Shown here: positions 7,476 through 38,062 of the stretch, piece by piece
How the letters are laid out: every line of letters begins with the position of its first letter
Numbering within the stretch: position 1 is the first letter of the stretch
Assembly: GCA_036004665.1 (NCBI GenBank)
Contig: DASYRG010000029.1
Span: forward strand, 12,753-76,752
Length of the DNA: 64,000 bases
Direction: 5' to 3'
Source: a bacterium
GTDB lineage: Bacteria > Sysuimicrobiota > Sysuimicrobiia > Sysuimicrobiales > Humicultoraceae
Position numbers and translations under genes: made by a program
The notes under the pieces: model-generated
Database searches by the model: none
What the model was told of the DNA's origin: nothing
The model's input: the letters and a program-made list of their open reading frames with translations, nothing else

Positions 7476-10400
7476 GTGCTGGTGTCCACGATGCGTGCAC
7501 GCCGGATCCTGCTGCTGCTCCTGATCGTCCTCGCCCTCGGACTCGGCGGAGGGGTCGCCGCCCTCTGGTTCTCTGGGACCCTGCACGGGCGCGTCCGTGA
7601 GCAGTTGGTGGCCTCCGCAGAAGCGAGCCTGGGCCGGGAGGTGGCGGTGGGGCGCCTGCGCGGGGATCCGCTGCGGGGCGTCGTCATCGACGACCTGGCG
7701 GTGGCGCGCACCGACCGGCTCAGCGAAGGCGCCATGATCACCGCAGAGCGGGCGGAGATCCGTTTCGACGCCCTGGCGTTGGGACGCGATCTCCTCACCG
7801 GCCGGGGCGTCCTGCCCAGCATCCGGCAGATCGTCCTCGTGTCGCCGACGCTGGCCCTCGAGGTCAGCCGGGAGGGGCGCTGGAACGTCGCTGACCTCCT
7901 TCGCCGCCAGCCCGCGGGCGGCGGCCCGAGCGTCTTTCGGCCTCTCGTGGAGATCCGAGCCGGCGCCGTCGATTTTTCTGACGCCTTCGGGCTGCGCCGT
8001 CCGTTCCTGGCGCGATTCAGCCAAGTCAACGGCACGGTCGATCTTCGCGCCTGGCCCCGCGTGCGTCTGGCGGCGGAGCTGGTCAGCCTGCGGGCGGATC
8101 GGGCCACGCCCCTGGTCGCCAGCGGAACCTATCTCGCCGGGATGGATGCGCTCGATCTCGCCGTCTCGGCGGAGCGCGCCCCCCTGGTCCAGTGGGGACC
8201 GTACTTCGTGCGCGTACCGGGGTTCGTGTTGGACGGCGGCTACGCAGATGCGGCCTTCCACGTGCTGCGGACGCGCTGGGGCGGCCGCCGGGCGCTGGAC
8301 TACCGGGGGACGCTGCGCCTCTATGACGCCGAGGCGCTTCTCCTGCCGCAACGGGCGCGGCTGCGGGACGCCCACGGCGTCATTGAAGTGGACAACCTGG
8401 GCTTGCGCACTGAGGCTCTCGCCCTGACGGTGGACGGATCGCCGCTGCGCCTGCGCGGGGAGATGATCAGCACGGCGCGGGGACGGCGCCTCGACCTGAC
8501 CGCCGTCTCGCAGGAGATGGATCTGACCACGCTGCGGCGGGTCCTCTTCCCGGGCTCCCAGCTCGCCCTCGTCGGGCGCACGGGGGGGGAGGTCCGCATC
8601 AGGGGCCCGATGCAGACGTTGACTGTGGAGGGCGCGCTCTACCACGCGCGCGGCGCCATCAACGCGCAGCCCTTCACCATTACCAGATCGGGCGTGACCG
8701 TCATTGGGAACCTGCTGGCCCTTGACGGCCTCTCGGCCACCGCCGGATCTGCGCGGGTCTCCGGTGAAGTCCGCCATCTCCTCGGCACCCCTGAACTGCT
8801 CGTCGCCGGCGAGGCGCACGATCTCAGCGCAGAGATCTGGCGGCGGGCTGGGATCCCCCTGAGCCTTCCCTTAGAGGGGCGGCTCGATGGGTCGGTGGCG
8901 CTCGGGCGGACCGGCGACAGCCTGATGGTCGAGGCGGCGCTGACCATGACCTCCGGACGAGCTGGCGGCCTTCGGGTGGACGGCATCCGCGCCGGGGGCT
9001 GGGTGGAGGACGGCGCGTTCTACTTCCCCTATCTCGTCGGCGCCCAGGGCACCTCCCAGGTCCACGCTGCGGGCGCCGTCGCCGAGTCGGGCCGGCTCGC
9101 CATGGACGTCGCCGGAACCGACCTGGATCTACGTCGGATCTCCGCGCTGGTCGGGCTGCGCCCCGCGATCTCCGGGCAGGCGGACGTGCGCGGGCGGCTG
9201 ACGGGTTCGCTGGCGGCCCCGGTCTTCGACGGTGACCTGGTCATGGGGAGGGGGAGCGCTGGGACGCTCGCGTTCGATGGGGCGGAGGGCCCTCTCCACC
9301 TCACCCGCCAGAGCGTATCAACCCCCGGTCTCCTGATCCGGGACGGCCCGGGGACCTACCGTCTCGCGGGGACGGCGCAGTGGGCCGCGGCCCACCCAGC
9401 CCTCGATCTGACTGTGGACGCCGAGGAGATCGCCGCCGCCGCACTGGCGCGTGACGCCGGGCTGGCCCTCGACCTGCGGGGGCGCCTCTCCGGCCGCCTG
9501 CACATCGGCGGCACACCGCGGCGGCCCAGCGTGACCGCGTCGCTGACGCTGCGTGAGGGGCGGCTGGAGGGGCAGCAGGTAGACGAGGCTACCGCCGCGT
9601 TCCGCTGGGTGGACGGCACCCTCCATCTCGACCGGGCGGAGGCGCGGGTCCGCGACTCGCTGATCCAGGCCAGTGGCACGGTACGCCGGGACGGGGAGAC
9701 GGAGATGACGATCTCGGCGCGGCAGTTCGATCTGCGGCATCTCACCATTCTGCCCCCTCAACTGCTGGCGGCCAGCGGAAAGATCGACCTCAACGGACGC
9801 GTCAGTGGGAAAGGGCTCAACCGCGTGGCAGGGGTGCTCTCCTCGAGTGACCTCACGCTCAACGGGCAGCGCTTCGACCAGGCGGAAGGTCTCGTCCGCT
9901 GGGCGCAGGGGCGGCTGCACCTGGAGCCGCTGACCCTGCGGCAGGGGCCGGGGGAATATACCATCACCGGCACGCTGGAGCTGCAGGGGCCGGTGAGGTT
10001 CGATCTGCAGGGCGAGGTGGCCGGCGGCCGCCTCTCCACGCTGCTGGCCCTGGGAGGTGTACGGCCGCCGTTTCCTCTGGACGGGCGGCTCGACGGGGTG
10101 GTCCGGGTCGAAGGCACCCCAGCGAGGCCCTCGGCCTCGCTGGATGCCCGGCTGTCGCAGGGACGCCTGGGCGACCACCCCATCGAGGAGGGGCAGGCGG
10201 TCCTCAGCGCGCGGGACGACGTCATCACCGTCGAACGGCTGCGGCTGCGTTCAGGATCGGGGGAGATCGCGGCGCAGGGGCGCGTTGCCCTCCGCGGCTC
10301 CAGCGCCCTCGAGGTGAGCGGCTCCAACCTCAACCTGGACCTGCTCCGTCCCCTCCTCGGCCTGCGGCGTCCGCTGCGCGGCACGCTGAGCTTCACCACG

Positions 10401-11867
10401 CAGTTCAGCGGGGCACTCAGCGATCCCGAGATCGGGCTGTCGCTGGAGCTGCGCGACGGCGGCGTCGAGGGGTTGACATTCGACTCGCTCGTGGCCAACG
10501 CGTTTTACCAGGACGGCCAGTTCCACATCGAGCAGGCGCTCCTCACTGAGGGCACCAACCGGGTCAAAGGGACGGGCACGATTCCCTTCAACCCGGCGCT
10601 GCGCTCGCTGGCGGAGACCCGGCCCATGCGCTTCGAGATCTCGCTGGTGGAAGCCAACCTCGGCCTGCTCACGCTGCTGACCCCCCAGGTGCAGGAGGCG
10701 TCGGGCCGGATGGAAGGGCAGGTCACCCTCAGCGGCACCCCGCGCGCTCCCGAGATGTCCGGGCGGCTGATGGTCCGCGGCGGCCGGATCAAACTGCGCA
10801 GCGTCGTCACGCCGCTGGAAGAGATTGCGGCCGACCTCATCTTCCGCGAGGACCGGCTGACGTTGGACAGCTTCAGCACGCGCATGGGCAGCGGGACGGT
10901 CTCGGCCACGGGCGCGGTGGCCGTGGCCGACTTCCGCCCCGCACGCATCGAGCGGTTGTCCGTGCGCGCGCGCGATGCGCGGCTGGAGGTCAAGCCGCTC
11001 TTTGCCGGCCAGGTCGATGCCGACCTCACCATCGCCGGGTCACTGCTGGACGCCGCCGCTCCCCCCGAGATCGCCGGAACCCTCACCCTCAAGCGGGGGG
11101 ATCTGGTGATCAGCGCGGCGCCCGGGGGGTCGGGGTGGCGGGGACCCAACTTCCGCCTCCACGACGTGCGCGTGCGCGGCGGGGAGGAACTGGCCGTCCA
11201 CCTCGGCCGGGTGCGCATCGACCTGCAAGAAGGGGAGGTCATCGCCGGCGGGACGCTGCGCCAGCCCACCCTCGATGGGGAGTGGGTGGCGGAGCGCGGG
11301 ACGATGACCGTCTTCGGTCAGACGTTCATCCTGCGGGAGGGGCGGGCGCGCTTCCTCCCCCAACTGGGGTTGACGCCCATTGTCTCGCTGGAAGCCGAGA
11401 CGCAGTTGGGCGCCACGCGGGTCTTCATCGAGGTGCATCAGGCGTTGCCGCACGAGATGGCGGACCGGATGATTCTGCGGTCCGATCCCCCGCTCAGCCG
11501 TGAGGAGATCGCCCAGCTCCTGGCGCAGCACTCCGGGCTGGCGCATCTCGCCGCCGGGGACGTCCAGTCGGCGCTGCGGGTCGAGCTCTCCCGCGCGCTC
11601 TTCGGCGAGATCGGGCAGACGGTGGCGCGCGCCCTGGGGCTGACCGAGTTCGTCATCCAGTACGATTTCGCTCAGCCGCTGCAGCTGCGCATCGGGCGGC
11701 TGCTCGTGCGCGATCTCTACCTGACCCTGACGACGGTCTTCGAGGCGCCCCGCACCCGCTTCGTCTGGGCGCTGGAATGGCGCTTCGCCCGCAACCTCAT
11801 GTTCACGCTGAGCCTGGACAATGTTGGGCGCTCCGACGCGCTGCTGCTCTATCAGATCCGGTTCTAA
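7476..11867 (+). CDS. tamB: Translocation and assembly module protein TamB (AsmA-like, DUF490 C-terminus), 1463 aa
   Basis: Single N-terminal TM segment, very long beta-rich body and the characteristic DUF490 C-terminus (...LQLRIGRLLVRDLYLTLTTVFEAPRTRFVWALEWRF...LLLYQIRF). Lies upstream of bamA as in diderm Firmicutes. Confidence 0.8.
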   Translation: MLVSTMRARRILLLLLIVLALGLGGGVAALWFSGTLHGRVREQLVASAEASLGREVAVGRLRGDPLRGVVIDDLAVARTDRLSEGAMITAERAEIRFDALALGRDLLTGRGVLPSIRQIVLVSPTLALEVSREGRWNVADLLRRQPAGGGPSVFRPLVEIRAGAVDFSDAFGLRRPFLARFSQVNGTVDLRAWPRVRLAAELVSLRADRATPLVASGTYLAGMDALDLAVSAERAPLVQWGPYFVRVPGFVLDGGYADAAFHVLRTRWGGRRALDYRGTLRLYDAEALLLPQRARLRDAHGVIEVDNLGLRTEALALTVDGSPLRLRGEMISTARGRRLDLTAVSQEMDLTTLRRVLFPGSQLALVGRTGGEVRIRGPMQTLTVEGALYHARGAINAQPFTITRSGVTVIGNLLALDGLSATAGSARVSGEVRHLLGTPELLVAGEAHDLSAEIWRRAGIPLSLPLEGRLDGSVALGRTGDSLMVEAALTMTSGRAGGLRVDGIRAGGWVEDGAFYFPYLVGAQGTSQVHAAGAVAESGRLAMDVAGTDLDLRRISALVGLRPAISGQADVRGRLTGSLAAPVFDGDLVMGRGSAGTLAFDGAEGPLHLTRQSVSTPGLLIRDGPGTYRLAGTAQWAAAHPALDLTVDAEEIAAAALARDAGLALDLRGRLSGRLHIGGTPRRPSVTASLTLREGRLEGQQVDEATAAFRWVDGTLHLDRAEARVRDSLIQASGTVRRDGETEMTISARQFDLRHLTILPPQLLAASGKIDLNGRVSGKGLNRVAGVLSSSDLTLNGQRFDQAEGLVRWAQGRLHLEPLTLRQGPGEYTITGTLELQGPVRFDLQGEVAGGRLSTLLALGGVRPPFPLDGRLDGVVRVEGTPARPSASLDARLSQGRLGDHPIEEGQAVLSARDDVITVERLRLRSGSGEIAAQGRVALRGSSALEVSGSNLNLDLLRPLLGLRRPLRGTLSFTTQFSGALSDPEIGLSLELRDGGVEGLTFDSLVANAFYQDGQFHIEQALLTEGTNRVKGTGTIPFNPALRSLAETRPMRFEISLVEANLGLLTLLTPQVQEASGRMEGQVTLSGTPRAPEMSGRLMVRGGRIKLRSVVTPLEEIAADLIFREDRLTLDSFSTRMGSGTVSATGAVAVADFRPARIERLSVRARDARLEVKPLFAGQVDADLTIAGSLLDAAAPPEIAGTLTLKRGDLVISAAPGGSGWRGPNFRLHDVRVRGGEELAVHLGRVRIDLQEGEVIAGGTLRQPTLDGEWVAERGTMTVFGQTFILREGRARFLPQLGLTPIVSLEAETQLGATRVFIEVHQALPHEMADRMILRSDPPLSREEIAQLLAQHSGLAHLAAGDVQSALRVELSRALFGEIGQTVARALGLTEFVIQYDFAQPLQLRIGRLLVRDLYLTLTTVFEAPRTRFVWALEWRFARNLMFTLSLDNVGRSDALLLYQIRF

Positions 11868-11980: not shown

Positions 11981-12607
11981 ATGTTCGCCGACTACCTGCG
12001 TGAACTCCAGCGGGTGCGCCTGCTCACCCCCGTAGAGGAAGCGGAGTGCTGGCGGCGCTTCCGCGGCGGCGGCGACGCCGAGAGTCGCCTGCGCCTGATC
12101 GAAGCCTACCAGCCCCTCGTCTTCAAGCTGGCGATGCAGCTGCAGCTCCCCCGGCCGAGGGTGATGGACTTCATCCAGGAAGGCACCGTCGGCCTGATCG
12201 AAGCGGTGGAGCGGTTCGATCCCACGCGTCGGGTCCGCTTCAGCACCTTCGCTGCCTACCGCATCCGGGGGCGAATGCTCAACGCCCTGGGGCGCCGCGG
12301 TCCGGAGCTCTCACTGGACCAACTCGTCGCCGACGAACTGGCGGCCGCCCTGGGCGACCTCGAGGCGGAGACGGCGCTGGCGCGTGTGGAGGACCGCGTC
12401 CTCGTCTCCCAGGTGGGGGCGGCGATCGCCGAGCTGCCTGAGCGGGAACGGGAGATTCTGCGAGCCTTCCTGATGCGCCGGGAGCCCCGCGCGGTCGCCC
12501 GGGGGCTGCGGATCAGCCTCTCCCATTTCTACCGGTTGCAGAACCAGGCGATCGCCCGTGTGCGCGCCATGTTGCGGGGGGCCGCCCCGGGTACCGGATC
12601 GCCCTGA
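11981..12607 (+). CDS. Sigma-70 family RNA polymerase sigma factor (group 3/4-like)
   Basis: Region 2 (LVFKLAMQL...DFIQEGTVGLIEAVERFDP...FSTFAAYRIRG) and a region 4 helix-turn-helix (ISLSHFYRLQNQAIARVRA). RBS GAGGTGAGG. Confidence 0.75.
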   Translation: MFADYLRELQRVRLLTPVEEAECWRRFRGGGDAESRLRLIEAYQPLVFKLAMQLQLPRPRVMDFIQEGTVGLIEAVERFDPTRRVRFSTFAAYRIRGRMLNALGRRGPELSLDQLVADELAAALGDLEAETALARVEDRVLVSQVGAAIAELPEREREILRAFLMRREPRAVARGLRISLSHFYRLQNQAIARVRAMLRGAAPGTGSP

Positions 12608-13326: not shown

Positions 13327-15300
13327 ATGAAGATCGTCCTCCGCCGGCGCCGCTGGACCTGTGCCTGCACGTGGCTGGTCGTCATCCTTGCCCTCGCCCT
13401 CGGCACCGCTCAGCCGCCGCTCTTCGCTCAGACGCCGACTCCCACTCCGACGTCCTCGCCCACGCCGGCGCCCACTCCCCTGCCCGCACCGACCGCGACG
13501 CCGGTACCGGCTCCAGCCGCGCCCACCGCATCGCCGGCACCGGGAGCCACGCCGACCACCGCCCCGAGCCCTACCCCGACCGCGCGACCCACCCCGACGG
13601 CGACCCCGGCCGCGCCGCGTCCAGCAGCGACCGCCACGCCGGCGCAGCGTGTGATCGCCGTCGAGGTCGTCGGCAACAAGCAGATCGCCCTCGAGCGCAT
13701 CACCGAGGTGATCACAACGAAGGTGGGGGAGGTCCTCGATCCGGAGAAGGTCCGGCGGGATCTCGAGGCCATCCTGCAGCTGGGGTGGTTCGCGGACGTG
13801 TCGATCCGGGTGGAAACCGAACCGACGGGCGTGCGCGTGGTCTTTCTCATCGTGGAGAACCCCGTGATCAGCACGGTGGCAGTCGAGGGCAACACCGTCA
13901 TTGCGACGGAGGCGCTCATCGGCGCGCTGAAGGTCCCCCTTGGCCAGGTGTTGAACGCCCGCCAGCTCCGCGAGGGCATCAGGGCGGTCGAGCAGCTCTA
14001 TGAGAGCCGGGGCTACGTGCTGGCCCGGGTCACCGACGCCACGGTGGAGCCGGCCGGGGATGGCCGGCTGGTCATCCGGATCGCCGAAGGACGCGTGGAG
14101 GACATCGTCTTCCGCGGGCTCACCAAGACGAGGCCGCGCGTGGCCCAACGCTACCTGCGGATGAAGCGCGGCGACGTCTTCAACGTCGGGGCGATGAACG
14201 CCGATTTGCAGCGACTCTTCGACAGCGGACTCTTCGAGAACGTCCAGGCGCGCCCCCGCCCGGGCTCGGGACCGGACACCGTGGTCATCGAGATCGAGGT
14301 CAAAGAGGCCCAGACCGGGCGCATCGGCTTCGGCATCGGGTACAGCAGCGCCAGAGGGCTGATCGGACAGATCGAGTACGGCGAGCGGAACTGGCGCGGG
14401 ACGGGACAGTCCATCTCGCTGCGCATCGAGCGCGGGATCACCCGCGGGACCCTGGGGATCTCCAGCAAGCTCAACTTCCAGCTGAACTACCGGGAACCGT
14501 TCCTCGACGACCGGCCCACGACACTGGAGATCGGTCTCTTCGGGCTGTCGTCCATCCAATCGGAGGTGATCAGCAGGGAGACGACGTCACGCTTCGAGCT
14601 GGAGCGCACCGGCAGCTTCCTCGAGGTGGGCAGGCCGCTCGATGCGGTGACGACGCTCTCGCTGCGCGTGCGCTCGGAGCTGGCGGTGATCACGGCGCTG
14701 CCCCTCGATTCCAACAGCGAGGATTGTCCCTGCCCCCTCCCCAGCCTCTACAGCCCGGGCCGGACGATCTCGCTGCTGACCTCCGCCGTCAGGGAGACGC
14801 GGGACAGCCGGATCAACCCCACCCGCGGGAGCCGCCAGCTGCTGTCGCTGGAGGTGGGGTTGCCGGTGCTGGGTGGAGAGTTCTCCTTCCAGAAATACTT
14901 CGGCGAGTACATCCAGTACTTCTCCGTGGGGGCGGGCCACGTGGCCGCCCGCGCGCAGTTGGGGCTGGGCAGCGGCTTCATCCCCTTCCAGGAGTGGTAC
15001 GTCCTGGGCGGACCGACGACGCTGCGCGGGGCGCAGGCCGGCCAGTTCCGCGGCACCAGTATGGCGATGGTGAACGTGGAGTACCGCCATCCCCTCGGCG
15101 GCATCGCCTCGTTCCTCAAGGAATTCCAAGGCATCGTGTTCGTCGACGTGGGGGCGGCGCCGATCAGCGGAGGAGGCAACTTCTCAACCAGTTATGGCAT
15201 CGGCACCTCGTTCAACTCGCCCCTCGGCGTGATCCGGTTCGATCTGGCCTTCGGGCCGGGGGGAACCCAGACGTGGATCAACCTGGGCCAGCCCTTCTAA
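13327..15300 (+). CDS. bamA: Outer membrane protein assembly factor BamA (Omp85) with N-terminal Pro/Thr-rich linker
   Basis: Signal peptide, about 75 aa of PT-rich low complexity, POTRA-like repeats (VIAVEVVGNKQIALERI...VSIRVETEPTGVRVVFLIVENPVI...) and a C-terminal beta-barrel ending ...INLGQPF. Confidence 0.85.
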   Translation: MKIVLRRRRWTCACTWLVVILALALGTAQPPLFAQTPTPTPTSSPTPAPTPLPAPTATPVPAPAAPTASPAPGATPTTAPSPTPTARPTPTATPAAPRPAATATPAQRVIAVEVVGNKQIALERITEVITTKVGEVLDPEKVRRDLEAILQLGWFADVSIRVETEPTGVRVVFLIVENPVISTVAVEGNTVIATEALIGALKVPLGQVLNARQLREGIRAVEQLYESRGYVLARVTDATVEPAGDGRLVIRIAEGRVEDIVFRGLTKTRPRVAQRYLRMKRGDVFNVGAMNADLQRLFDSGLFENVQARPRPGSGPDTVVIEIEVKEAQTGRIGFGIGYSSARGLIGQIEYGERNWRGTGQSISLRIERGITRGTLGISSKLNFQLNYREPFLDDRPTTLEIGLFGLSSIQSEVISRETTSRFELERTGSFLEVGRPLDAVTTLSLRVRSELAVITALPLDSNSEDCPCPLPSLYSPGRTISLLTSAVRETRDSRINPTRGSRQLLSLEVGLPVLGGEFSFQKYFGEYIQYFSVGAGHVAARAQLGLGSGFIPFQEWYVLGGPTTLRGAQAGQFRGTSMAMVNVEYRHPLGGIASFLKEFQGIVFVDVGAAPISGGGNFSTSYGIGTSFNSPLGVIRFDLAFGPGGTQTWINLGQPF

Positions 15301-15311
15301 GCCGCCGCCGG

Positions 15312-16595
15312 CTGGCCGGGGGAACGGCCGCCGCGGCGCGGGGTCTGGTCCTGCTGCTCGCCCTGAGCGGGCCCGCCAAGGCGGCCGCCGTCGTGGTGCA
15401 GAGCGTCGACGTTCGCTTGGCCGTCGAGGGCGCCGGCCCGCCCCCGCTGGTGCGCGCCCGGCTGCAGGAAACGGTGGCGACGGTGGCCCAGCGGCTGCTG
15501 ATCGGCCGGGCGGTCGAGCAGCTGCGCCCCGCCCAGGCGCAGCTGCAGACGACGCTGGCGACTGTGGTCGACCGCGTCATCACCGGCTATTCGGTCACGG
15601 AGACGCGGCTCGAAGTCGGAGCGGCCACGGTCGTCGCCGTGCGGCTGCGCCCCGACCCCCCGGTGATCGCCGGCGTGGAGATTCTCCCCAAGACGGTGGT
15701 GCATCCGGCGGTCGCCCCGCTCGTGCTGGCACCGATCGATCACGAGGTCGCGCCGGCCGTGCGGACCATGCTGATGGGGCTGCCGGTGGAAGCGCTGGAC
15801 TGGGCAGGGCCGCTGATCGCCGAGGAGGCCCGCCGCGTCTCTGAATCGCTGCTGCCCGGGTTTGCCGCGGTGGTGCGGGTGCGGGGAGGGACGGCGGCCC
15901 GGGTGGAGATCGATCTGGCGGCCCGGGAGGGTCGGGTGGTGCGTGACATTGGAGTGCGTTTCCGGTCCTCCTCCATCCCGACGCTCCTGCTGGAAACCCA
16001 CGCGCCTGCGGTGACCTCGCTGGCCGAACCGGTACGGGGTCTGCCCGTCGTCTTTGCCGAGGGACACCGGGCAGACCTGGAGCGGCTGCTGGGCGAACGC
16101 CTGCGGGCCTACCCACCGGTCGGCCAGTACCACGTCGTCGTTCGACCGGTGCTGCGGGTGGCCGAGACCACCTACGTCACAGTGCTGGCCGATTCGCTGG
16201 CGTGGATGGGACGGGTCGAGGCCGTGGTGAACCTGGGCTCCCGCGCCCCGGCGCCGGAACTCCGGCTGCACCTCGGTCGTCTGTTTGATCGGTTCGAGCT
16301 CTTCGCCGAGGCGGCGATTCCCCCCAACACGTTCGCCGGCCGCTACGACCTGGGGGTGCGCTATCGGGTCACCGACGCGCTCGACCTGGGGAGCAACGTC
16401 GCGCTGAACGCGGTCGCAGTGACCCCCTGGGCAATTTACCGCCTCTCGCCAGACCTGAGCGTCCGGGCGGCGTATGAGATTCACCAGCGGCGCTTCGAAG
16501 GCGGCGTCCGCTACCGGTTCCACGAGTTCCTCTCGGGTGAACTGGTGGGGACCTCGGGAGGAGAGGTGTGGCTGCAGGTAATAAGCAACCTGTGA
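15312..16595 (+). CDS. Secreted hypothetical protein (~430 aa) between bamA and skp; start codon uncertain
   Basis: Long open frame starting immediately after the bamA stop, with a signal-like segment (RGLVLLLALSGPAKAAA). No ATG/GTG/TTG between the bamA stop and the signal peptide; a CTG at ~15312 is the only candidate. The C-terminal third has alternating-hydrophobic strands suggestive of beta structure. Confidence 0.45.
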   Translation: MAGGTAAAARGLVLLLALSGPAKAAAVVVQSVDVRLAVEGAGPPPLVRARLQETVATVAQRLLIGRAVEQLRPAQAQLQTTLATVVDRVITGYSVTETRLEVGAATVVAVRLRPDPPVIAGVEILPKTVVHPAVAPLVLAPIDHEVAPAVRTMLMGLPVEALDWAGPLIAEEARRVSESLLPGFAAVVRVRGGTAARVEIDLAAREGRVVRDIGVRFRSSSIPTLLLETHAPAVTSLAEPVRGLPVVFAEGHRADLERLLGERLRAYPPVGQYHVVVRPVLRVAETTYVTVLADSLAWMGRVEAVVNLGSRAPAPELRLHLGRLFDRFELFAEAAIPPNTFAGRYDLGVRYRVTDALDLGSNVALNAVAVTPWAIYRLSPDLSVRAAYEIHQRRFEGGVRYRFHEFLSGELVGTSGGEVWLQVISNL

Positions 16596-16639
16596 GCGTC
16601 CCTCCTGCGGCGCGCGGGGTATCCCCGCCCTTGATTGAC

Positions 16640-16670
16640 GGTGGCGTGTACAATGAGAGGGTTGTGTGAT
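16640..16670 (+). promoter_or_regulatory. Weak candidate promoter upstream of the skp-lpx-lpt operon (TACAAT -10-like element)
   Basis: Lower-GC intergenic stretch ...cttgattgacggtggcgtgtacaatgagag... upstream of the TTG start with RBS GAGGAGGAG. The -35 spacing is not canonical. Confidence 0.25.
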
Positions 16671-28079: not shown

Positions 28080-29146
28080 TGCCGATTCTTGACCGCTACA
28101 TTATCCGGGAGGTCGGGGCGATCTTCCTGTTCGGCATCGCGCTCTTCACGCTCATTCTCACCGTCAACCACATCTTTTTCCTCGCCCGCTTCGCCGCGAC
28201 CGATCAGGTGGGCTTTGCGGTAGTGGCGCGGCTACTCCTGCTGCGGGTTCCCTACTTCCTCGCGTTCTCCCTGCCCATGGCGATGCTGCTTGGCACCCTC
28301 CTCACCTTTGGCCGCCTCTCCGACCGCAACGAGGTCGTGGCCATGCGCACAAGTGGGATCAGCCTGATCCGTGTCGCCCTCCCCGTGCTGGCCGGAGGCG
28401 TCTTCGTCTCCCTCGCCGGGATCGCACTGAACGAATGGGTGGTGCCGCTGGCCGAGGAGCGCTACCGCACTGAGTTCCTCCAGGCGGGGTCGCGATCGCT
28501 GGCGCCGCAAGGCTATCTGCTCTTCCGGGAGCGGGACGGGGAGCGAGTCTCCGTCTACTATGCGCGCCGCGTGGCGGCCGACGGGGAGAGCATGGAAGGG
28601 CTGACCGCCAACCAGTTCGAGCGGGACCGGCTGGTCCGGGTGATCGAGGCGGCCCGCGCCCGCTACGGTCCCGACGGCTGGAAACTGGAGGACGGCACGA
28701 TCCACCTCTTTGGCGGCCCGCAACTGGTGCAGGTGCGCTTTGAACGCATCGATGCCGGCATCCGGCGGACGCCCCAGGAGATCCTTGTGGGGAGAAAGGA
28801 CCCCTCGGAGATGACCATCGCCGAGCTGCGCGCCTACATGGGCATTCTCCGTCGCACCGGGGAATCGATCGCGCAGTACCTCGTCTGGCTGCACTCGCGG
28901 CTGGCCCTCCCCTCGAGCAGCCTGATCTTCGCCCTGCTGGCCGTCCCGCTGGGGTTGCGCCCCCATCGCTCCGGTTCCTCGATCGGGCTAGGGCTGACCA
29001 TCGTCACCCTGCTGGTCTATTACCTGTTGATGAACACGACGCTGGCGTTGGGGCAGTCGGGCCGGCTCCCCCCGTCTCTGGCGGCTTGGTCCCCGAACCT
29101 CCTCATCGGCGCGGTGGGAGGCTATCTGCTGTGGCGGGCGCGCTAA
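28079..29146 (+). CDS. LptF/LptG-family permease (YjgP/YjgQ)
   Basis: MPILDRYIIREVGAIFLFGIALFTLILTVN... N-terminus and six-TM topology typical of LptF/G. Only one copy present. Confidence 0.75.
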   Translation: MPILDRYIIREVGAIFLFGIALFTLILTVNHIFFLARFAATDQVGFAVVARLLLLRVPYFLAFSLPMAMLLGTLLTFGRLSDRNEVVAMRTSGISLIRVALPVLAGGVFVSLAGIALNEWVVPLAEERYRTEFLQAGSRSLAPQGYLLFRERDGERVSVYYARRVAADGESMEGLTANQFERDRLVRVIEAARARYGPDGWKLEDGTIHLFGGPQLVQVRFERIDAGIRRTPQEILVGRKDPSEMTIAELRAYMGILRRTGESIAQYLVWLHSRLALPSSSLIFALLAVPLGLRPHRSGSSIGLGLTIVTLLVYYLLMNTTLALGQSGRLPPSLAAWSPNLLIGAVGGYLLWRAR

Positions 29147-29148
29147 GG

Positions 29149-30795
29149 GTGCCGCGGCTGCGCCGCCCGGCCCGGCCGCCCGCGGCGCTCCTGCTGGCGG
29201 CAGCCGCGTTCCTGCTCTTCACCCTCGGTCTCGGCCGGGGCAGCCTGTGGGATCAAGATGAGCCCCGCTACACCGACATCGCCCGCCAGATCACCGAGCG
29301 AGGCGATCCGATCACCCTCTACCACAACGGGGAGCCCTGGTTCGTCCACCCACCCCTGTACATGTGGCTCGTCGCGGCGACCGGGTGGCTGCTGGGGTTC
29401 TCCGAGTTCACGGCTCGGATCTGGACGTCGCTGTTTGGCACCGGGGGGGTTCTGGTCACCTTCCTGCTCGGCCGCCGCCTCTACGGCGCGCACGCGGGCC
29501 TGGTGGCGGGCCTGATCGTGATGACGACCCTGGAGTACTTCGTCCTCTCGCGGCTGGCGATCTTCGATGTCGTCCTTGTCACCTTCATGCTGGCCGCCCT
29601 CTACATGGTGCTGGCCGCGGAGGAGGCGGACGCCGCTGGCCGCCGGCGCGCCCTCCGCTGGGCCTTTGTCTGGGCCGGTCTGGCCACGCTGACCAAAGGC
29701 CCAATCGGCCTGCTGCTGCCGGCAATGGCCGTCGGCGCATGGTGGCTGTGGCGCGGCGTCCTGGTCGCGCGCCTGCGCGCCCTACCTGCCGAGGGTCTGC
29801 TTCTCTATGCCGTGATCGGCCTCTCCTGGTACGCCCTTGAAGCGGCGCGGCACGGCCTGCCCTTCCTGCAGCGCATGGTTGGCTACTATATGGTGGGGCG
29901 GTTCTTCGGCGTGGTGGAGAACCAGCCCGGCCCCTGGTACTACTATCTGCCGGTGCTCGCCCTGGGCGGCTTCCCCTGGAGCGCGCTTTTCCCGTCGCTC
30001 GCCGTCTACCATGGGCGCCGGTTCCGCCGGGATCCGCGCAGTCTCCTCCTCCTCATCTGGATCGGCGTGACCGTCCTGTTTTACTCCGCCGCGGGAACGA
30101 AACTGCCCAACTACGTCCTGCCGGTCTTCCCCGTCGCCGCGATTGCAGCCGGCCCGGTGTGGGTCCGCGCCATCTGGGAACGCGATACGGAAGCGGCCGG
30201 TCTGGTGCGCTGGGGCGCCGGCCTCCTACTGCTGGGCGGACTCGCCCTGGGGACGGCGGTGATGATCTTCGGGCAGATGAAGTACCCGGCGGAATTTGCC
30301 GCCGTCGCCCCGCACCTCCGCCGCCTCGGGGTGATGCTCGCGGTGGGGGTCGTGGTCGCGGCCCTCTTCCTGGCCGCGCGCGCCTACCGGCAGGGGTTCG
30401 CCGTCCTCACCGCGACGATGGTAGCGACGCTCCTCACTGTGGCCCTCGCCACCGTGCCGCACCTGGAGCGCCTCCGCGCCACCAAGCCGATGGCCCTGGC
30501 ACTGCGGGCCGTCGTGCGGCCGGAGGACAAAGTCGTCGGCATCGGACTCTCCGACCGTGCCTCCCTCGTCTACTACGGCCGCCACCCCATCATTTGGTTG
30601 GTCGGCGTGGAATCGCTTGCGCGGCGAAACCTCTGCGGGCCGCGCCGTGGCTTTCTGATCATCACCCGCGCCGAGTACGAGCGCTGGGCCCGAGGGGCTT
30701 TCGCTGGGGAGCTGATCACCCTCCGCGAGCTAGGGGATATGGTGCTGCTGGAGACCGCCGCCCCCCTGCCCTGCCCGCCCGCGCCGTCCTCGTGA
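29149..30795 (+). CDS. Glycosyltransferase family 39 (ArnT / PMT_2-like polyprenyl-phosphate sugar transferase)
   Basis: Multi-TM protein with the N-terminal DEPRYTDIARQI...HPPLYMWL pattern of ArnT/PMT-type enzymes. GTG start 2 nt after the lptF/G stop. Confidence 0.7.
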   Translation: MPRLRRPARPPAALLLAAAAFLLFTLGLGRGSLWDQDEPRYTDIARQITERGDPITLYHNGEPWFVHPPLYMWLVAATGWLLGFSEFTARIWTSLFGTGGVLVTFLLGRRLYGAHAGLVAGLIVMTTLEYFVLSRLAIFDVVLVTFMLAALYMVLAAEEADAAGRRRALRWAFVWAGLATLTKGPIGLLLPAMAVGAWWLWRGVLVARLRALPAEGLLLYAVIGLSWYALEAARHGLPFLQRMVGYYMVGRFFGVVENQPGPWYYYLPVLALGGFPWSALFPSLAVYHGRRFRRDPRSLLLLIWIGVTVLFYSAAGTKLPNYVLPVFPVAAIAAGPVWVRAIWERDTEAAGLVRWGAGLLLLGGLALGTAVMIFGQMKYPAEFAAVAPHLRRLGVMLAVGVVVAALFLAARAYRQGFAVLTATMVATLLTVALATVPHLERLRATKPMALALRAVVRPEDKVVGIGLSDRASLVYYGRHPIIWLVGVESLARRNLCGPRRGFLIITRAEYERWARGAFAGELITLRELGDMVLLETAAPLPCPPAPSS

Positions 30796-31481
30796 AGACC
30801 TCGCTGGTGCTGCCGACCTACAATGAGCGCGAGACGCTCCCCGCCCTGATCGCCGCCTTCGGGCCGCTGGCCGCCCCCCTCGATCTGGAGGTCGTCGTCG
30901 TCGACGATGCCTCCCCCGACGGCACCGCCGAGGTGGCCTCCCGCCTGGCCGCTGACGGCGACGTGCCGATGCGGCTGGTGCGGCGGGCCGGCAAGGGCGG
31001 ACTCGCCTCAGCGGTCCTGGCGGGCGCGTCGTCGTCGTCGGGCCGCATCATCGCCGTGATGGACAGCGACGGCTCTCATCCGCCCGCGACGCTGGCGCCC
31101 CTCGTGGCGGCCCTGGATGAAGGCGCGGACGTGGCCATCGCCTCGCGGTACGCCGGCGGTCGGATCACCGGCTGGCCCATCTGGCGGCGGGCGGCGAGCC
31201 TCGCCGCCACCGCCGCGGCGCGGATGCTCTTTCGGTTGAGGGTGCGCGATCCGCTCTCGGGTTTCTTCGCCGCCCGGCGCGAGGTTTTCACCCGGCGGAC
31301 CTACTGGGGCATCGGCTTCAAGATCCTGCTGGAGATTCTGGCACGGAATCCCGAGCTGTCGGTGAAAGAGATTCCTTACGTGTTCACCGACCGCGCCGCC
31401 GGCCGCAGCAAACTCTCCCTGAAGGAGGTGACGGCCTACCTCCAGCTCCTGCGGCGGCTGTGGAGGGAGCGGCTGGCCTGA
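30792..31481 (+). CDS. GT2 polyprenyl-phosphate glycosyltransferase (ArnC / dolichyl-phosphate mannose synthase-like)
   Basis: LVLPTYNERETLP...VVVVDDASPDGT...IAVMDSDGSHPP motifs of GT2 polyprenol-phosphate glycosyltransferases. GTGA overlap with the GT39 gene. Confidence 0.75.
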   Translation: MKTSLVLPTYNERETLPALIAAFGPLAAPLDLEVVVVDDASPDGTAEVASRLAADGDVPMRLVRRAGKGGLASAVLAGASSSSGRIIAVMDSDGSHPPATLAPLVAALDEGADVAIASRYAGGRITGWPIWRRAASLAATAAARMLFRLRVRDPLSGFFAARREVFTRRTYWGIGFKILLEILARNPELSVKEIPYVFTDRAAGRSKLSLKEVTAYLQLLRRLWRERLA

Positions 31482-32410
31482 TGGAGTTCGGCGTCACCCT
31501 CATCCCCCTGCTCATTCTGGTCAGCGGCGGGATCGCCTATGTCGGCAACCTGGTGGGTCGCGCGATCGGGCGCCGCCGCCTGACGCTCTTCGGCCTGCGC
31601 CCGCGCTATACCGCTCAGATCATCACCATCGCCACCGGCATGATCATCACCGTAATTACGGTGGCCGCGGTGCTGCTGGTCTCGCGCGACGCGCGGCAGG
31701 CCCTCTTCCAGTACCGCAGCCTGCAAGCGCAGATCAGCGGCCTGCGCGCCGAGATCCAGAACGCCGAGGCCCGCCTGCGCCAGCTGAAGCAGGGGGACAT
31801 CGCCTACCTGCGCAATCAGGAGGTCCTCCGCGGCGTGATCGACGGCCGGCTTCCCCTCGTGCAGGTCGCCGACCAGGTTGATTCGCTGCGGCTGCGCGCC
31901 GTCGACCTGGCGCTGGCCAATGGGATCAACGTCGACGGCACTACTGGCGCGGTGCTGCGGCTCTTTCCCGCGGAGCTGACCTGGGATCAGGTCGCCGCGA
32001 TGGTGAAGGAGCACGCTCGTGAGACCATCCTCCGCATCGTCGCCAACGAGAACGCGCTGGCGGGGGAACCGCTGGAGGTAAACGTTCAGCTCATCGACAA
32101 CCGGCTGGTTTTCCCGCGTGGGAGCACCCTCGCCTCCGCGACCCTCGATGGGCGACGCTCCCGGGACGAGATCGGCCGGCAGCTGCTCGACCTACTCGAT
32201 CAGGCCACCGCCGCGGCGCGCCGGGAAGTCCTGGCCCCGCCCTTTGCGCGCATCACCGAGTCCCCCCAACTGGAAGCAAACATCGATGCCATCCGGAGGG
32301 TCGTCGATCGGGTCGCCAGGGCGAAACGCCAGGTGCGGGTTGACGCCGTCACCGCGCGCGACGTCCAGACGACCGGTCCTGTGATCGTTGACTTCCGTCC
32401 GCATCTCTAG
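31481..32410 (+). CDS. DUF3084-like membrane-anchored coiled-coil protein
   Basis: Two N-terminal TM helices followed by a coiled coil (SLQAQISGLRAEIQNAEARLRQLKQ). This matches the DUF3084 architecture. The ATG at 31481 overlaps the GT2 stop (TGATG). Confidence 0.5.
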   Translation: MEFGVTLIPLLILVSGGIAYVGNLVGRAIGRRRLTLFGLRPRYTAQIITIATGMIITVITVAAVLLVSRDARQALFQYRSLQAQISGLRAEIQNAEARLRQLKQGDIAYLRNQEVLRGVIDGRLPLVQVADQVDSLRLRAVDLALANGINVDGTTGAVLRLFPAELTWDQVAAMVKEHARETILRIVANENALAGEPLEVNVQLIDNRLVFPRGSTLASATLDGRRSRDEIGRQLLDLLDQATAAARREVLAPPFARITESPQLEANIDAIRRVVDRVARAKRQVRVDAVTARDVQTTGPVIVDFRPHL

Positions 32411-32584: not shown

Positions 32585-32810
32585 GGGAGGTGCTTCCCCG
32601 GCGCCTATGGAACATGCACGCTGCGAGCGCAGGTGGACGGAGCAACCCTCCGTCAGAATAGGGAAGCCGGTGACTCACCGATCGCCCGTGTGCGGCCCGG
32701 TGAGGAGTCCGGCGCGGTCCCGCCGCTGTCACGGGGAGCGTGCCCTCCCGCACGACGCCACTAGGCCCGCCGCCATTTCGGCGGTCCCGGGTCCGGGAAG
32801 GCTGAGGGTC
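32585..32810 (+). ncRNA. Putative cobalamin (B12) riboswitch in the leader of the TonB-dependent receptor gene
   Basis: Contains GGTGC..., AATAGGGAAGCCGGTGA, GGTGAGGAGTCCGG, a GTCCCGCCGCTGTCACGGGGA block (B12-box-like; consensus GCCACTG, here GCCGCTG) and a downstream GGGAAGGC element. Ends about 120 nt upstream of the receptor ATG. Confidence 0.5.
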
Positions 32811-32927
32811 ACGCGAGGAGCCGGAGCCAGAAGACCTGCCTGCGCTTTCCAGACCGGTATCGCCGCCGCGGCTTCTACAGCAAGCGCGGCGACGGGCCAC
32901 GCCTTCGCGGAAGGGGGTGGGTCTTCT

Positions 32928-36051: not shown

Positions 36052-36528
36052 GCGAGCCTGGGCCCGTGCGGGCCCGTCCGGACGAGGATGGATCAGGAAG
36101 GAATTGGCTGGGCGCCGTCGAACCCCCTACGAGCGTAGCAGTTGGCGACGCGCGGTAAGCACCAGAAAAACCTTTGAATCAGGAGACGAAGCCGCTACAC
36201 TGATGCGCGGCAGCGGCCGCCGAGAGGTGTCCTGCGCCGTGTGTGGCTTTCCAAGCGAAGTTCGCAGGAAGATCTGTGCAGTTTCTGTAGAAGCCGTCTT
36301 TGCAAGCGTCTGACGCCGCCTGGCCCGTGAGGGCCCAGGGCGAATCCGAGCGGGGAAAGGAGGGCCGCCAAGAGCAGTCCGCCGGAGGAGAGGTGGCGGG
36401 ACGAACAGGGCCAGAGGTGACCTGGTGGAGCGCCGGAAAGGCGATCACTCAGATGGAGGAAACATGACCACTCCAACGGAGACTCCCCCAGCACCCAACG
36501 GCTCGATCACATCAAGGGGGGTAACACG

Positions 36529-38019
36529 TTGAAGAAGTTCCTCGCACTTGGCATCGCAGCAGTGCTTTCGCTTGCGGTCGCCGCCCCTGCCTTCGCCCAG
36601 CCATTCGCCGACGTCGACGCCCTGCACTGGGCGTTCGACGCGATCGTCGAGCTGGCCGCGAAGGGCATCATCGAAGGCTATCCCGACGGGACCTTCAAGG
36701 GCGACCGGGCAATGACCCGTTACGAGATGGCGATGGTCGCATCCAGGCTCCTCGCCCGGATCGAAGCCATCAAGATCCCACCCCCTCCAAAGATCCCACC
36801 GCCCGAAGTGACGCGCGCCGACATCGACCGCCTGACGCGGCTCCTCAACGAGTTCCGCGCAGAGCTGTCTGCCCTCGGCGTCCGCATCACGGCGTTGGAG
36901 GAGGAACTTGCGGCGCTCCGCGCACGCGTGGACAACACCTTCATCACCGGGAACTGGACCTACGTCTACGTCACCGGTGGGGGGTTTACCACGGGCACGC
37001 CCGAAGTGCAGCGGAACCGCATCCGGCTGAACATCCGGGGCCGGCTCTCCCCTGAGTTCCAGGTCTTCCTGCGCGCCCGGTGGAACTCCCTCTACACCTT
37101 CTCCGGCTTCTCGGGCTGCACCACTGGGCACTGCGCTGTCACCGACTTCGACCGGCTGCGCGGCGACTGGGCCTCGCCGTGGTTTGGCATGGTCTGGTCC
37201 GTCGGCCGCGAGTACTGGCAGTTGGGCCCGCTCGGCCACCTGCTCTTCGCCGAGACTTCTCGCGAAGGCATGCGGGTCACCGGGGGGTTCGGCGGAATCA
37301 ACTGGACGGTCCTCGGCTTCTGGAACAGCGGCGGCGCCGGCTCCAAGACCTACGGCGTCCGCGTCGAACTCCCATCCTTCGCCGGCTGGACGTTCGGCGT
37401 CAACTACCGCCAGGACCGGAACAACCTCGACACATCGGACCCGCTCGGCAACGGCACCGGGTTCGGCTTCGACTGGAGCGGCAGCTTCATGGGCGGCTTT
37501 ACGTTCTCGGGTGAGTACGCCAGCTGGAATCCCGTGGGCGGCTGCCCAGACACGGTTGACCCGGGCGACGGCTGCACCACGCTCTTCGCCAAGCTCTCGA
37601 TCAACCTCGGCCAGTTCGTCGGCGCCAGCCAGTTTGCGCCGATGCTCAGCATCTACTATAGGGACTTCCGGCAGGGCTTCGTGGCGACCGCAGGCACCTG
37701 CGGCGCGACCACCTGCTCGGACCACGCCTTCCTGGCCCAGGGCAACTGGCTCTTCTACACGCTCCTATTCGGGGGTCAGTTCTGGGGCGCGGACCTGTCC
37801 CTGCAGCTCTCCTCCCGGCTCTCGGGACTCGTTGCCTATGAGACCGGCACGGTCTACGGCATCGCCGACACCACGACCAACGGCCTTCTGGCCAGGGCCG
37901 TCTACACCCTTTCCAGGAACGCCACCGCCGAAGTGGAGTACGGTCGGCAGGTGATCACCACTTCCGGGGTCTCCACCACCATCAGTGGCGCGGCGTTCCG
38001 CGTCTTCTTCAGCTGGTAG
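36529..38019 (+). CDS. SLH-domain outer-membrane porin (OmpM/Slp-like outer-membrane-to-peptidoglycan tether)
   Basis: Signal peptide, N-terminal S-layer-homology domain (FADVDALHWAFDAIVELAAKGIIEGYPDGTFKGDRAMTRYEMAMVASRLL), a coiled-coil segment and a C-terminal amphipathic beta-barrel region ending ...AAFRVFFSW. Confidence 0.75.
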   Translation: MKKFLALGIAAVLSLAVAAPAFAQPFADVDALHWAFDAIVELAAKGIIEGYPDGTFKGDRAMTRYEMAMVASRLLARIEAIKIPPPPKIPPPEVTRADIDRLTRLLNEFRAELSALGVRITALEEELAALRARVDNTFITGNWTYVYVTGGGFTTGTPEVQRNRIRLNIRGRLSPEFQVFLRARWNSLYTFSGFSGCTTGHCAVTDFDRLRGDWASPWFGMVWSVGREYWQLGPLGHLLFAETSREGMRVTGGFGGINWTVLGFWNSGGAGSKTYGVRVELPSFAGWTFGVNYRQDRNNLDTSDPLGNGTGFGFDWSGSFMGGFTFSGEYASWNPVGGCPDTVDPGDGCTTLFAKLSINLGQFVGASQFAPMLSIYYRDFRQGFVATAGTCGATTCSDHAFLAQGNWLFYTLLFGGQFWGADLSLQLSSRLSGLVAYETGTVYGIADTTTNGLLARAVYTLSRNATAEVEYGRQVITTSGVSTTISGAAFRVFFSW

Positions 38020-38022
38020 CAG

Positions 38023-38062
38023 TCGCAGGACGGAAGGGCCCGGGGGTTATCCTCCGGGCCCT
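38023..38062 (+). terminator. Rho-independent terminator after the OmpM-like gene
   Basis: GAAGGGCCCGGGGG-ttatcc-TCCGGGCCCTTC followed by TCGTTTTC. Confidence 0.6.

Follow-up and report, generated by a model that had tools for sequence, protein, structure and literature searches.

The 64,000-nucleotide (nt) stretch of contig DASYRG010000029.1 analyzed here (the window) very probably contains the locus with which an uncultured bacterium of the phylum Candidatus (Ca.) Sysuimicrobiota (CSP1-3) encodes its outer-membrane (OM) biogenesis, and this locus is homologous to the diderm-Firmicute OM cluster in both gene content and gene order. It is a known kind of system, the Firmicute-type OM cluster, in another phylum and not a new kind of system. 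The cluster has been reported from Negativicutes, Halanaerobiales, and Limnochordia (PMC5007114), and it is a central argument for the proposal that Firmicutes ancestrally had two membranes, with several losses of the OM. Its presence in Ca. Sysuimicrobiota would contradict the published view of it as “seemingly unique” to diderm Firmicutes, and predicts that the cells of CSP1-3, an abundant phylum in deep soils and hot springs, have two membranes, lipopolysaccharide (LPS), and an OmpM tether. It would also provide an outgroup for asking whether the cluster predates the Firmicutes or was transferred, and it extends SonA and SonB, two proteins described only in 2026, beyond Firmicutes.

Lineage and Synteny

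We aligned homologues of a 601-amino-acid (aa) protein encoded within the locus and scanned one genome per GTDB species for syntenic loci. The best syntenic locus belongs to a soil metagenome-assembled genome (MAG), with 63–84% aa identity to the proteins of the window. Identities were 47–76% for “Armatimonadetes bacterium CSP1-3”, the CSP1-3 type MAG, which has 15 syntenic genes, 36–79% for Ca. Geohabitans tengchongensis, and around 36–76% for several Ca. Fervidifonticultor species; these ranges cover 12 to 21 syntenic genes per locus. The NCBI taxonomy places these relatives in the phylum Ca. Sysuimicrobiota (CSP1-3), kingdom Bacillati. Geohabitans and Fervidifonticultor are among the members of Sysuimicrobiota (formerly CSP1-3) as defined in PMC11604079, which assigns the phylum to Terrabacteria with Armatimonadota as its neighbour. 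CSP1-3 genomes have a GC content of 62–74%, and the phylum has no cultured member (PMC11962464). The original prediction, made from the letters of the window alone, had guessed at a Limnochordia-like or other deep-branching diderm lineage. The first half of this guess has to be dropped, since the nearest relatives are Ca. Sysuimicrobiota MAGs, and no Limnochordia-titled locus appeared among the 79 that were fetched; the hedge was sound, given that these relatives form a separate Bacillati phylum and do not belong to a classical Gram-negative one.

The gene order is maintained in around 27 CSP1-3 loci compared by tblastn. In these, the genes for TamB, a sigma factor, a membrane protein, BamA, a 440-aa protein, three Skp proteins, LpxD, and the 601-aa protein are followed by those for LpxC, FabZ, LpxA, LpxI, LpxB, LptC, LptA, LptB, LptFG, a GT-C glycosyltransferase (and GT2), a DUF3084 protein, and a receptor. 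Six more loci extend the synteny upstream to an S55 peptidase and downstream via a riboswitch, the receptor, TonB, a YqgF-like protein, and OmpM to a protein of around 88 aa. Because three independent metagenome contigs and around 30 related loci carry the same arrangement, it is not an assembly artefact.

The likeness to the Firmicute cluster can be followed gene by gene in Acetonema longum. Its locus (AFGF01000157) encodes MlaD, a TolC-like protein, TamB, a sigma factor of 215 aa, a protein of 186 aa, BamA, SonA, three Skp proteins of 157, 319, and 140 aa, and LpxD, and the window is colinear with it, gene for gene, from tamB through sigma, sonB, bamA, sonA, and the three skp genes to lpxD. 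The Skp trio is short-long-short in both. Identity reaches 59% for FabZ, 42% for LpxD, and 39% for LpxC, with 33% for BamA and 24% for TamB, which aligns over its full length (E 1e-76). The sigma factor, 57–82% identical among CSP1-3 loci, is 45% identical (E 6e-54) to the one at the equivalent position in A. longum. Together with the single LptF/G, two OstA proteins, DUF3084, and OmpM, all of them features of the published cluster (PMC5007114), this colinearity bears out the description of the window as “diderm-Firmicute-type”.

Two of the colinear genes correspond to SonA and SonB (F7NM22 and F7NM24), described in A. longum as part of a sonB-bamA-sonA-skp1 operon conserved among diderm Firmicutes (PMC13018214). 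SonA is a protein of around 426 aa with a Sec signal, three POTRA domains, and a ten-strand barrel (PMC13018214). The 440-aa protein of the window is encoded between bamA and skp1, as in A. longum, and its AlphaFold2 (AF2) model (mean predicted local distance difference test score, pLDDT, of 90) predicts three POTRA-like beta-alpha-alpha-beta-beta units and around ten strands over residues 311–439. The top matches of this model in the PDB (Foldseek) were all BamA, TamA, or Toc75. A profile of the CSP1-3 family, run against 1.84 billion representatives, matched F7NM22 over its full length (E 9e-61), and BLASTP between the two proteins gave 24% identity (E 3e-26). The 186-aa protein of A. longum, encoded between the sigma gene and bamA, is SonB by its locus order (PMC13018214), and it shares with the 207-aa protein of the window an N-terminal SHH..A..WLT.A motif and a C-terminal SLRGE motif. 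The SonA-family profile search returned 278 clusters at 50% identity and, as judged from these sequences, the distribution of SonA is wider than Firmicutes plus CSP1-3. Two loci whose lineages were not placed, L090 and L091, carry a SonA-family gene; in one, it adjoins skp alone, and in the other, it lies in the order bamA-sonA-skp-x-lpxD-lpxA-x-lpxB-msbA-kdsB-waaA (x being an intervening gene), with neither tamB nor a sigma gene.

Some observations weigh against this assignment. The genes lpxK, waaA, kdsA–D, msbA, and lptD were not found among the open reading frames (ORFs) annotated across the 64-kb window, and the YqgF/RuvX-like counterpart of the COG0816 gene of Firmicutes is weakly assigned. 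Furthermore, the OM and LPS of CSP1-3 are predicted from genes, and the two papers on the phylum are silent on its envelope (PMC11604079, PMC11962464).

Origin of the Locus

An alternative to inheritance from a common diderm ancestor is that the 30-kb island was transferred horizontally into CSP1-3 or into Firmicutes, which we consider unlikely, although its tight clustering makes transfer mechanically possible. LpxB belongs to family GT19 of the CAZy classification. GT19 is among the glycosyltransferases reported as “acquired” at an internal CSP1-3 node (PMC11962464). In contrast, the GC content (0.66–0.74) and third-position GC (GC3) of the island equal those of its flanks upstream and immediately downstream, a tRNA scan of the window found none, and there is no integrase or transposase among the annotated flanking genes. 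The housekeeping context (hpt, an IMPDH-like gene, and guaA) is the same in a second CSP1-3 MAG (L086), though not in L087, the array is present across deep CSP1-3 branches, and the identities to A. longum are at the level expected between phyla. An ancient transfer could still account for the sequences.

It is less likely still that the window simply contains an ordinary Gram-negative neighbourhood accompanied by chance neighbours, with nothing Firmicute-specific about it. The core order bamA-skp-lpxD-(fabZ)-lpxA-lpxB is carried by E. coli. Synteny of lpxABCD is documented (PMC5007114), and this core order is ancient and widespread. In Eremiobacterota/Vulcanimicrobiota and UBP9, for example, we found just such a core (bamA-skp-lpxD-601 aa-lpxC-fabZ-lpxA-lpxB), which tamB does not adjoin, and the unplaced lineage with msbA, kdsB, and waaA has its bamA-sonA-skp-lpxD-lpxA-lpxB run with neither tamB nor a sigma gene. 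However, what the window has in common with Negativicutes also includes tamB followed by an orthologous sigma gene, sonB, sonA, and the short-long-short Skp trio, with the single LptF/G, DUF3084, the COG0816-like gene, and OmpM in one locus, and the whole 30 kb is kept throughout the phylum.

Gene Content of the Array

Since a GC content of around 70% yields many spurious ORFs, genes were chosen by GC3, and start codons were checked against gene calls on near-identical public contigs. Proteins were identified with Pfam and NCBIfam hidden Markov models, and the cut-offs quoted are NCBIfam equivalog or Pfam thresholds. This gave an unbroken array of plus-strand genes from 5.4 to 39 kb in the order tamB, sigma, sonB-like, bamA, sonA-like, three skp genes, lpxD, the 601-aa gene, lpxC, and onward (Table 1). 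Its GC content of 0.66–0.74 over 7–38 kb and its 4-nt overlaps (seven GTGA and one ATGA) agree with the earlier remark on around 70% GC and many GTGA overlaps. Every gene that the original prediction had named is supported by Pfam or NCBIfam, but its list left out the sigma, sonB-like, sonA-like, 601-aa, DUF3084, and YqgF/RuvX-like genes. Of its further statement that lpxI is used rather than lpxH and OmpM rather than Lpp/Pal, the 64 kb bear out the presence of lpxI and ompM. From skp1 to DUF3084, 17 genes are packed so closely that all 16 junctions measure 10 nt or less, and start and stop codons overlap at 11 of them.

Table 1. Genes and predicted elements of the locus, in window coordinates.
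Feature	Position	Strand	Evidence or remark
Secreted S55 (SpoIVB-type) serine peptidase	5409..7325 (probable start 5505)	+	Pfam Peptidase_S55, 32.5 bits
Terminator-like GC hairpin and T-run	7382..7413	+	After the S55 peptidase gene, before tamB
12-mer AAAACCTTTGGA	7424..7435	+	Starts 52 nt before the start of tamB
TamB, 1463 aa, AsmA-like inner-to-outer-membrane bridge protein	7476..11867	+	PF04357, 116 bits
Promoter-like motif cAGGA-N16-CGAA	11886..11913	+	Upstream of the sigma gene
Sigma-70-family sigma factor, 208 aa, regions 1.2, 2, and 4	11981..12607	+	Sigma70_r2, E 1.9e-16
SonB-like single-pass membrane protein, 207 aa	12688..13311	+	A. longum 186-aa homologue, 26% identity, E 8e-11
BamA, 657 aa, Pro/Thr-rich linker, 3 POTRA, Omp85 barrel	13327..15300	+	Omp85, 122 bits; POTRA, 118 bits
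SonA orthologue, 440 aa, signal peptide	15273..16595	+	AF2 and homology to F7NM22; overlaps the end of bamA
TTGAC(A)-N7-8-TA(C/G)AAT element	16635..16654	+	Upstream of skp1
Three Skp/OmpH paralogues, 161, 367, and 142 aa	16715..18738	+	PF03938, 59.7, 28.6, and 37.4 bits
LpxD	18735..19811	+	TIGR01853, 334 bits (cut-off 242.5)
601-aa protein (Unk601), secreted or membrane-anchored, multi-domain beta-sandwich	19808..21613	+	Between lpxD and lpxC
LpxC	21610-22485	+	NCBIfam equivalog, 216 bits (cut-off 187)
FabZ	22482-23024	+	NCBIfam equivalog, 177 bits (cut-off 155)
LpxA	23021-23878	+	NCBIfam equivalog, 279 bits (cut-off 231)
LpxI	23836-24690	+	Pfam LpxI_N, 74 bits; LpxI_C, 133 bits
LpxB	24680-25903	+	NCBIfam equivalog, 251 bits (cut-off 190)
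LptC	25900-26508	+	TIGR04409, 45.5 bits (cut-off 38)
LptA (OstA)	26519-27361	+	PF03968, 42 bits
LptB	27363-28079	+	TIGR04406, 334 bits (cut-off 240)
Single LptF/G	28079-29146	+	LptF_LptG PF03739, 302 bits
GT-C (ArnT-like, 554 aa) and GT2 (ArnC-like, 229 aa) pair	29131..31481	+	PMT_2/PMT and Glycos_transf_2 domains
DUF3084 membrane protein	31481..32410	+	PF11283, E 8e-26
Cobalamin riboswitch	32614..32857	+	RF00174, 79.3 bits (gathering score 31.5)
BtuB-like TonB-dependent receptor	32928-34730	+	Pfam Plug and barrel
TonB	34730-35611	+	Pfam TonB_C
YqgF/RuvX-like (COG0816-like) protein, 147 aa	35608..36051	+	Weak: Pfam RuvX, E 5.5e-4, 20.7 bits (cut-off 29.2)
Second AGGA-N16-CGAA copy	36099..36122	+	430 nt upstream of ompM
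AAAACCTTTGAA and TTGAAT-N16-TACACT, sigma-A-type promoter-like element	36167..36204	+	Before ompM
OmpM-type protein, SLH domain and porin-like region	36529..38019	+	SLH PF00395, E 4.7e-12, residues 25–68
Terminator-like hairpin	38042..38063	+	Closes the locus
88-aa protein, signal peptide, lipobox-like LPSC	38161..38427	+	Directly after ompM

Judging from the families of these proteins, LpxA, LpxC, LpxD, LpxI, and LpxB would make the lipid A disaccharide together with FabZ, while LptB, a homodimeric LptF/G, LptC, and LptA would extract lipid A and pass it across the periplasm. BamA, its small Omp85 paralogue SonA, the three Skp proteins, and TamB would insert barrel proteins and probably carry phospholipid, and OmpM, a type of protein that binds polyamine-modified peptidoglycan, would tie the OM to peptidoglycan and serve as a porin. 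The ArnC-like and ArnT-like pair would probably decorate lipid A or another periplasmic acceptor via a polyprenyl-phosphate sugar. The best NCBIfam matches of this pair score far under their cut-offs (126 against 567 bits for ArnT and 54 against 529 bits for ArnC), and the two proteins are therefore similar to ArnT and ArnC but not equivalogs of them.

Some of the other matches also deserve comment. The N-terminal part of TamB matches DUF748/YhdP in Pfam, BamA scores 231 bits against the TIGR03303 cut-off of 297, and the middle Skp of 367 aa falls below the Pfam cut-off of 32.4 bits. All 120 matches listed in a homologue search with the DUF3084 protein were CSP1-3-like. The arrangement around lpxI varies among loci: two lpxA-like genes surround it in L009, L085, and L088 (lpxA-lpxI-lpxA-lpxB), and the order is lpxI-lpxA in L005, L084, and L086 as opposed to lpxA-lpxI in the window.

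The 601-aa protein has no sequence match in Pfam, NCBIfam, or the PDB by profile search, and only around 50 homologues were found among 5.8 billion sequences. Its AF2 model (pLDDT 89.6) predicts several beta-sandwich domains behind a helix at the N-terminus, and Foldseek returned generic Ig-like and beta-sandwich matches alone from the PDB, with template modelling (TM) scores of 0.16 or less. We considered the protein as a candidate for LptD and rejected it because the model has no barrel. The invariant motifs in the alignment of homologues include SNRPE, HHxNG, and PHP.G. The gene occupies the lpxD-X-lpxC position in loci that carry the labels of three groups, CSP1-3, Eremiobacterota/Vulcanimicrobiota, and UBP9 (Bruticola), and it is missing from the CSP1-3 locus L087. 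We would go no further than to suggest a periplasmic function related to the OM or to lipid A.

Proposed Transcription Blocks and the Embedded Sigma Factor

The original prediction had proposed that the whole locus might be one coordinately regulated module. That proposal is not borne out: the locus is split by a hairpin, by promoter-like motifs before the sigma gene and skp1, by a cobalamin riboswitch, and by the ompM leader. A single operon transcribed from tamB to ompM is accordingly very improbable, even though all of the genes run in one direction and overlaps are frequent. The shared direction says little about an operon because just one credible minus-strand gene was found in the window (1871–2605, with 58.2–59.4 kb outside that check), and the four gaps of 113, 119, 517, and 477 nt carry phylum-conserved elements, namely, AGGA-N16-CGAA, TTGAC-N7-8-TACAAT, the riboswitch, and the ompM leader. 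We propose instead that the locus would comprise at least five transcription or regulation blocks, with predicted boundaries as follows. The first would be tamB, the second sigma-sonB-bamA-sonA behind the conserved AGGA-N16-CGAA, and the third skp1 through DUF3084. The fourth would consist of the btuB-like receptor gene under its riboswitch, tonB, and the yqgF-like gene, and the fifth would be ompM with its AGGA-N16-CGAA copy, sigma-A-like promoter, and long conserved leader.

The elements that separate these blocks are conserved to different degrees. A hairpin equivalent to the one before tamB is present in L083, L084, and L085 (four of four loci, including the window). The 12-mer AAAACCTTTGRA occurs exactly twice in the 64 kb (7424–7435 and 36167–36178), where 0.03 copies would be expected, and one copy precedes tamB, with which the cluster begins, and the other ompM, with which it ends; the copy upstream of tamB is partly conserved in L083 and L085 and not in L084. 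For AGGA-N16-CGAA, we scanned 34 loci, covering intergenic sequence up to 500 nt from any mapped gene. The motif, expected from base composition around once per 130 kb per strand, was found at just two intergenic places, before the sigma gene in 16 of 17 loci and before ompM in three of four (the window, L086, and L088). Its spacing and half-sites resemble the Bacillus sigmaH consensus, which is a lead and not a test. A position-weight matrix built for the sigma-upstream motif was discarded, as it included the spacer positions, found its training site only, and missed the ompM copy.

The element upstream of skp1 is complete in most of the 19 loci compared; L016, L025, and L029 have no recognisable TTGAC part, and L030 has no TACAAT part. 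With its two parts just 7–8 nt apart, it is unlike a standard -35/-10 promoter, and one possibility is a -10 element next to a site for a regulator. Upstream of ompM, a (C/T)ACACTG block resembling a -10 element is also present in L086 and L088, and a conserved leader of around 330 nt separates the sigma-A-like element from the gene. The whole 5′ region measures 280–490 nt (36052–36528 in the window, 14525–14962 in L086, 17083–17570 in L088, and 14199–14482 in L087). Among the blocks kept across species are GAGGAAAC.TGA.CACTC, which precedes the start by around 70 nt, and, at the ribosome-binding site, GGCTC...AAGGGGGGTA. The leader gave no Rfam match at a permissive threshold, and the region may be a regulatory leader. 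An ORF at 35981–36313 lies within it and is uncalled in near-identical contigs, and is thus probably not a gene.

Taken together, the conserved signals support the view that the locus is in part co-regulated at its two ends, and one of the two genes preceded by AGGA-N16-CGAA encodes a sigma factor. This protein matches TIGR02937 with 84 bits and no specific sigma family above its cut-off, and its region 4 is weak (16.6 bits). An extracytoplasmic function (ECF) class was considered and rejected because region 2 is closest to RpoS, FliA, and SigA. The SonB-like protein encoded next to it appears, as read from its sequence, to begin with a basic helical part, to have a single membrane helix, and to end in a part rich in proline; it contains no cysteine and is therefore not a lipoprotein. 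The sigma and sonB-like genes overlap by 5–16 nt in nine loci (coordinates inferred by tblastn).

The E. coli sigmaE–RseA pair is an envelope stress system composed of a sigma factor and a membrane anti-sigma factor. By analogy, the embedded sigma factor would read AGGA-N16-CGAA and drive its own operon (sonB, bamA, and sonA) as well as ompM, and the SonB-like membrane protein, given its topology, adjacency, and gene overlap, would be the anti-sigma factor, the pair forming a built-in envelope-sensing switch that works like sigmaE/RseA. An even broader proposal, which we offer tentatively and think somewhat doubtful, is that this pair is an ancient envelope switch common to Sysuimicrobiota and diderm Firmicutes, reading AGGA-N16/17-CGAA and coupling BamA and SonA with OmpM, and that both cluster and regulator come from a diderm ancestor predating the Firmicutes. 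A. longum offers one lead in this direction, an AGGA-N17-CGAA site with the same GTCGAA -10-like half, 63 nt upstream of tamB (L089, 2204–2228), but this is a single genome and the site could be there by chance.

Several observations speak against such a switch. L087 has no AGGA-N16-CGAA upstream of ompM, and A. longum has no such site upstream of its sigma gene. The link of the motif to this particular sigma factor is one that we infer, and general consensus scans for promoters and terminators gave counts at or near the shuffled background and were left unused. The SonB-like protein has no match in Pfam or NCBIfam and no recognised anti-sigma domain, and the paper that described SonB gives it the annotation of a putative lipoprotein and does not mention the sigma gene just upstream of sonB (PMC13018214). 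Nevertheless, the conserved sigma gene beside sonB provides a testable regulator of OM biogenesis in organisms that lack a classical sigmaE system.

Receptor Unit, OmpM, and Neighbouring Genes

The cobalamin riboswitch is found at the same place in L086, L087, and L088 with 79–91 bits, that is, in four of the four loci examined, including the window. A start of the receptor gene at 32607 was rejected, since 32614–32857 is the riboswitch and gene calls put the start at 32928. The best NCBIfam match of the receptor is the B12 receptor TIGR01779, with 191 bits against a cut-off of 600. The riboswitch, receptor, and TonB would thus form a unit for the uptake of vitamin B12 within the OM-biogenesis cluster, with cobalamin as the presumed ligand. 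For the YqgF/RuvX-like protein encoded next, there are two further weak signals: a RuvX match on the L086 orthologue, and E. coli YqgF as the top PDB match (E 0.058) of a four-sequence profile.

The best PDB sequence matches of the OmpM-type protein are OmpM of Veillonella parvula (8bys, E 2e-18) and Deinococcus SlpA (7zgx). Its porin region gives weak signals (Porin_4 with 21.5 against 27 bits, and a weak SlpA_C match) and ends in the aromatic C-terminus ...FRVFFSW, and a heptad-like stretch, as read from the sequence, is probably a coiled-coil stalk. Genes encoding 85–89 aa follow ompM in L001/L002, L086, L087, and L088, which is to say in every CSP1-3 locus examined, and the 88-aa protein of the window is possibly an OM lipoprotein partner of OmpM.

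The remainder of the window contains glmU, prs, wecA, and wecB upstream, and hpt, an IMPDH-like gene, guaA, pcrA, three Opp-type transporter sets, and gatCAB downstream. The minus-strand gene at 1871–2605, between prs and the wecA-like gene, encodes 244 aa and resembles an S-adenosylmethionine-dependent O-methyltransferase (GCGLGY motif). The transporter sets form a run (44119–58187) in which three family-5 solute-binding proteins are encoded alongside permeases and ATPases of the Opp type, and its GC content is around 0.65 versus around 0.70 in the OM cluster. Directly before tamB, an S55 peptidase of around 600 aa with the catalytic motif GMSGSP is also encoded in L083–L085, at the place where A. 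longum carries MlaD and the TolC-like gene. A role for this peptidase as the site-1 protease that cleaves the SonB-like protein is conceivable but pure speculation.

The least probable of all the alternatives is a high-GC diderm Firmicute, from Limnochordia or related to them, as the source of the contig, which would then simply carry a known cluster in a known host: the architecture is Firmicute-like down to sigma-sonB-bamA-sonA, a peptidase of the SpoIVB family adjoins the cluster, and some distant matches of the 601-aa protein fall in Bacillota-labelled MAGs, but the close, fully syntenic relatives (47–84% aa identity) are all CSP1-3/Sysuimicrobiota MAGs, identity to a real diderm Firmicute is only 24–59% (A. 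longum), the S55 protein, which we rejected as a SpoIVB orthologue, scores 35 bits against the NCBIfam spore_IV_B cut-off of 305, and the loci labelled Bacillota or ANGP1 (isolates NP_3, NP_6, and NP_7) lack lpx genes nearby and match the 601-aa protein just over its C-terminal half.

Comparison with Known Systems

The closest known system to the locus of the window is the OM cluster of diderm Firmicutes. According to Antunes et al. (2016; PMC5007114), the Firmicute locus contains lpxACDIBK, waaM, waaA, and kdsABCD, LptB, a single LptF/G, and two OstA proteins, with no LptD/E, as well as TamB, BamA, three Skp proteins, OmpM, an unexplained COG0816 protein, COG4372/DUF3084, and COG0750. The window resembles it in the adjacency of tamB, bamA, and three skp genes, in the sonB-bamA-sonA-skp1 and lpxC-fabZ-lpxA-lpxI-lpxB orders, in an Lpt set that within the cluster consists of LptB, one LptF/G, and two OstA-domain proteins and is without LptD/E, and in the inclusion of DUF3084 and an SLH-porin OmpM in the locus, the COG0816-like gene being weakly supported here. 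In contrast, the host belongs to Ca. Sysuimicrobiota and not to Bacillota, and lpxK, waaA, waaM, kdsABCD, msbA, mla, tolC, the flagellar ring genes, and the COG0750 protease are absent from the 30 kb; no COG0750/RseP-like protease was found anywhere in the window. The window also has extra genes, namely, those for the 601-aa protein, the ArnT/ArnC-like pair, the BtuB-like receptor with its riboswitch and TonB, and the S55 peptidase, and it carries a single copy of ompM, whereas up to twenty per genome have been reported in some Negativicutes.

Within the cluster, the 440-aa protein is like A. longum SonA in size, predicted architecture, position, and sequence homology, and the difference is that SonA and SonB are found here in another phylum than diderm Firmicutes. 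The receptor unit can likewise be compared with cobalamin-riboswitch btuB units (RF00174), with which it shares a full-length aptamer directly 5′ of a Plug-plus-barrel receptor gene, followed by tonB. It differs in that the receptor scores below the BtuB equivalog cut-off, the ligand is putative, and the unit lies inside an OM-biogenesis cluster.

Finally, the sigma factor and the SonB-like protein may be compared with the sigmaE–RseA system of E. coli. Both consist of an alternative sigma gene, apparently with its own promoter, next to the gene of a single-pass membrane protein, and both have a regulon, putative in this case, of OM-assembly genes (bamA, the Omp85 paralogue, and ompM). Nevertheless, the sigma factor of the window is not ECF, its SonB has neither an RseA nor a zinc-anti-sigma domain, and, instead of an adjacent DegS or RseP homologue, only the S55 peptidase is found, upstream of tamB.

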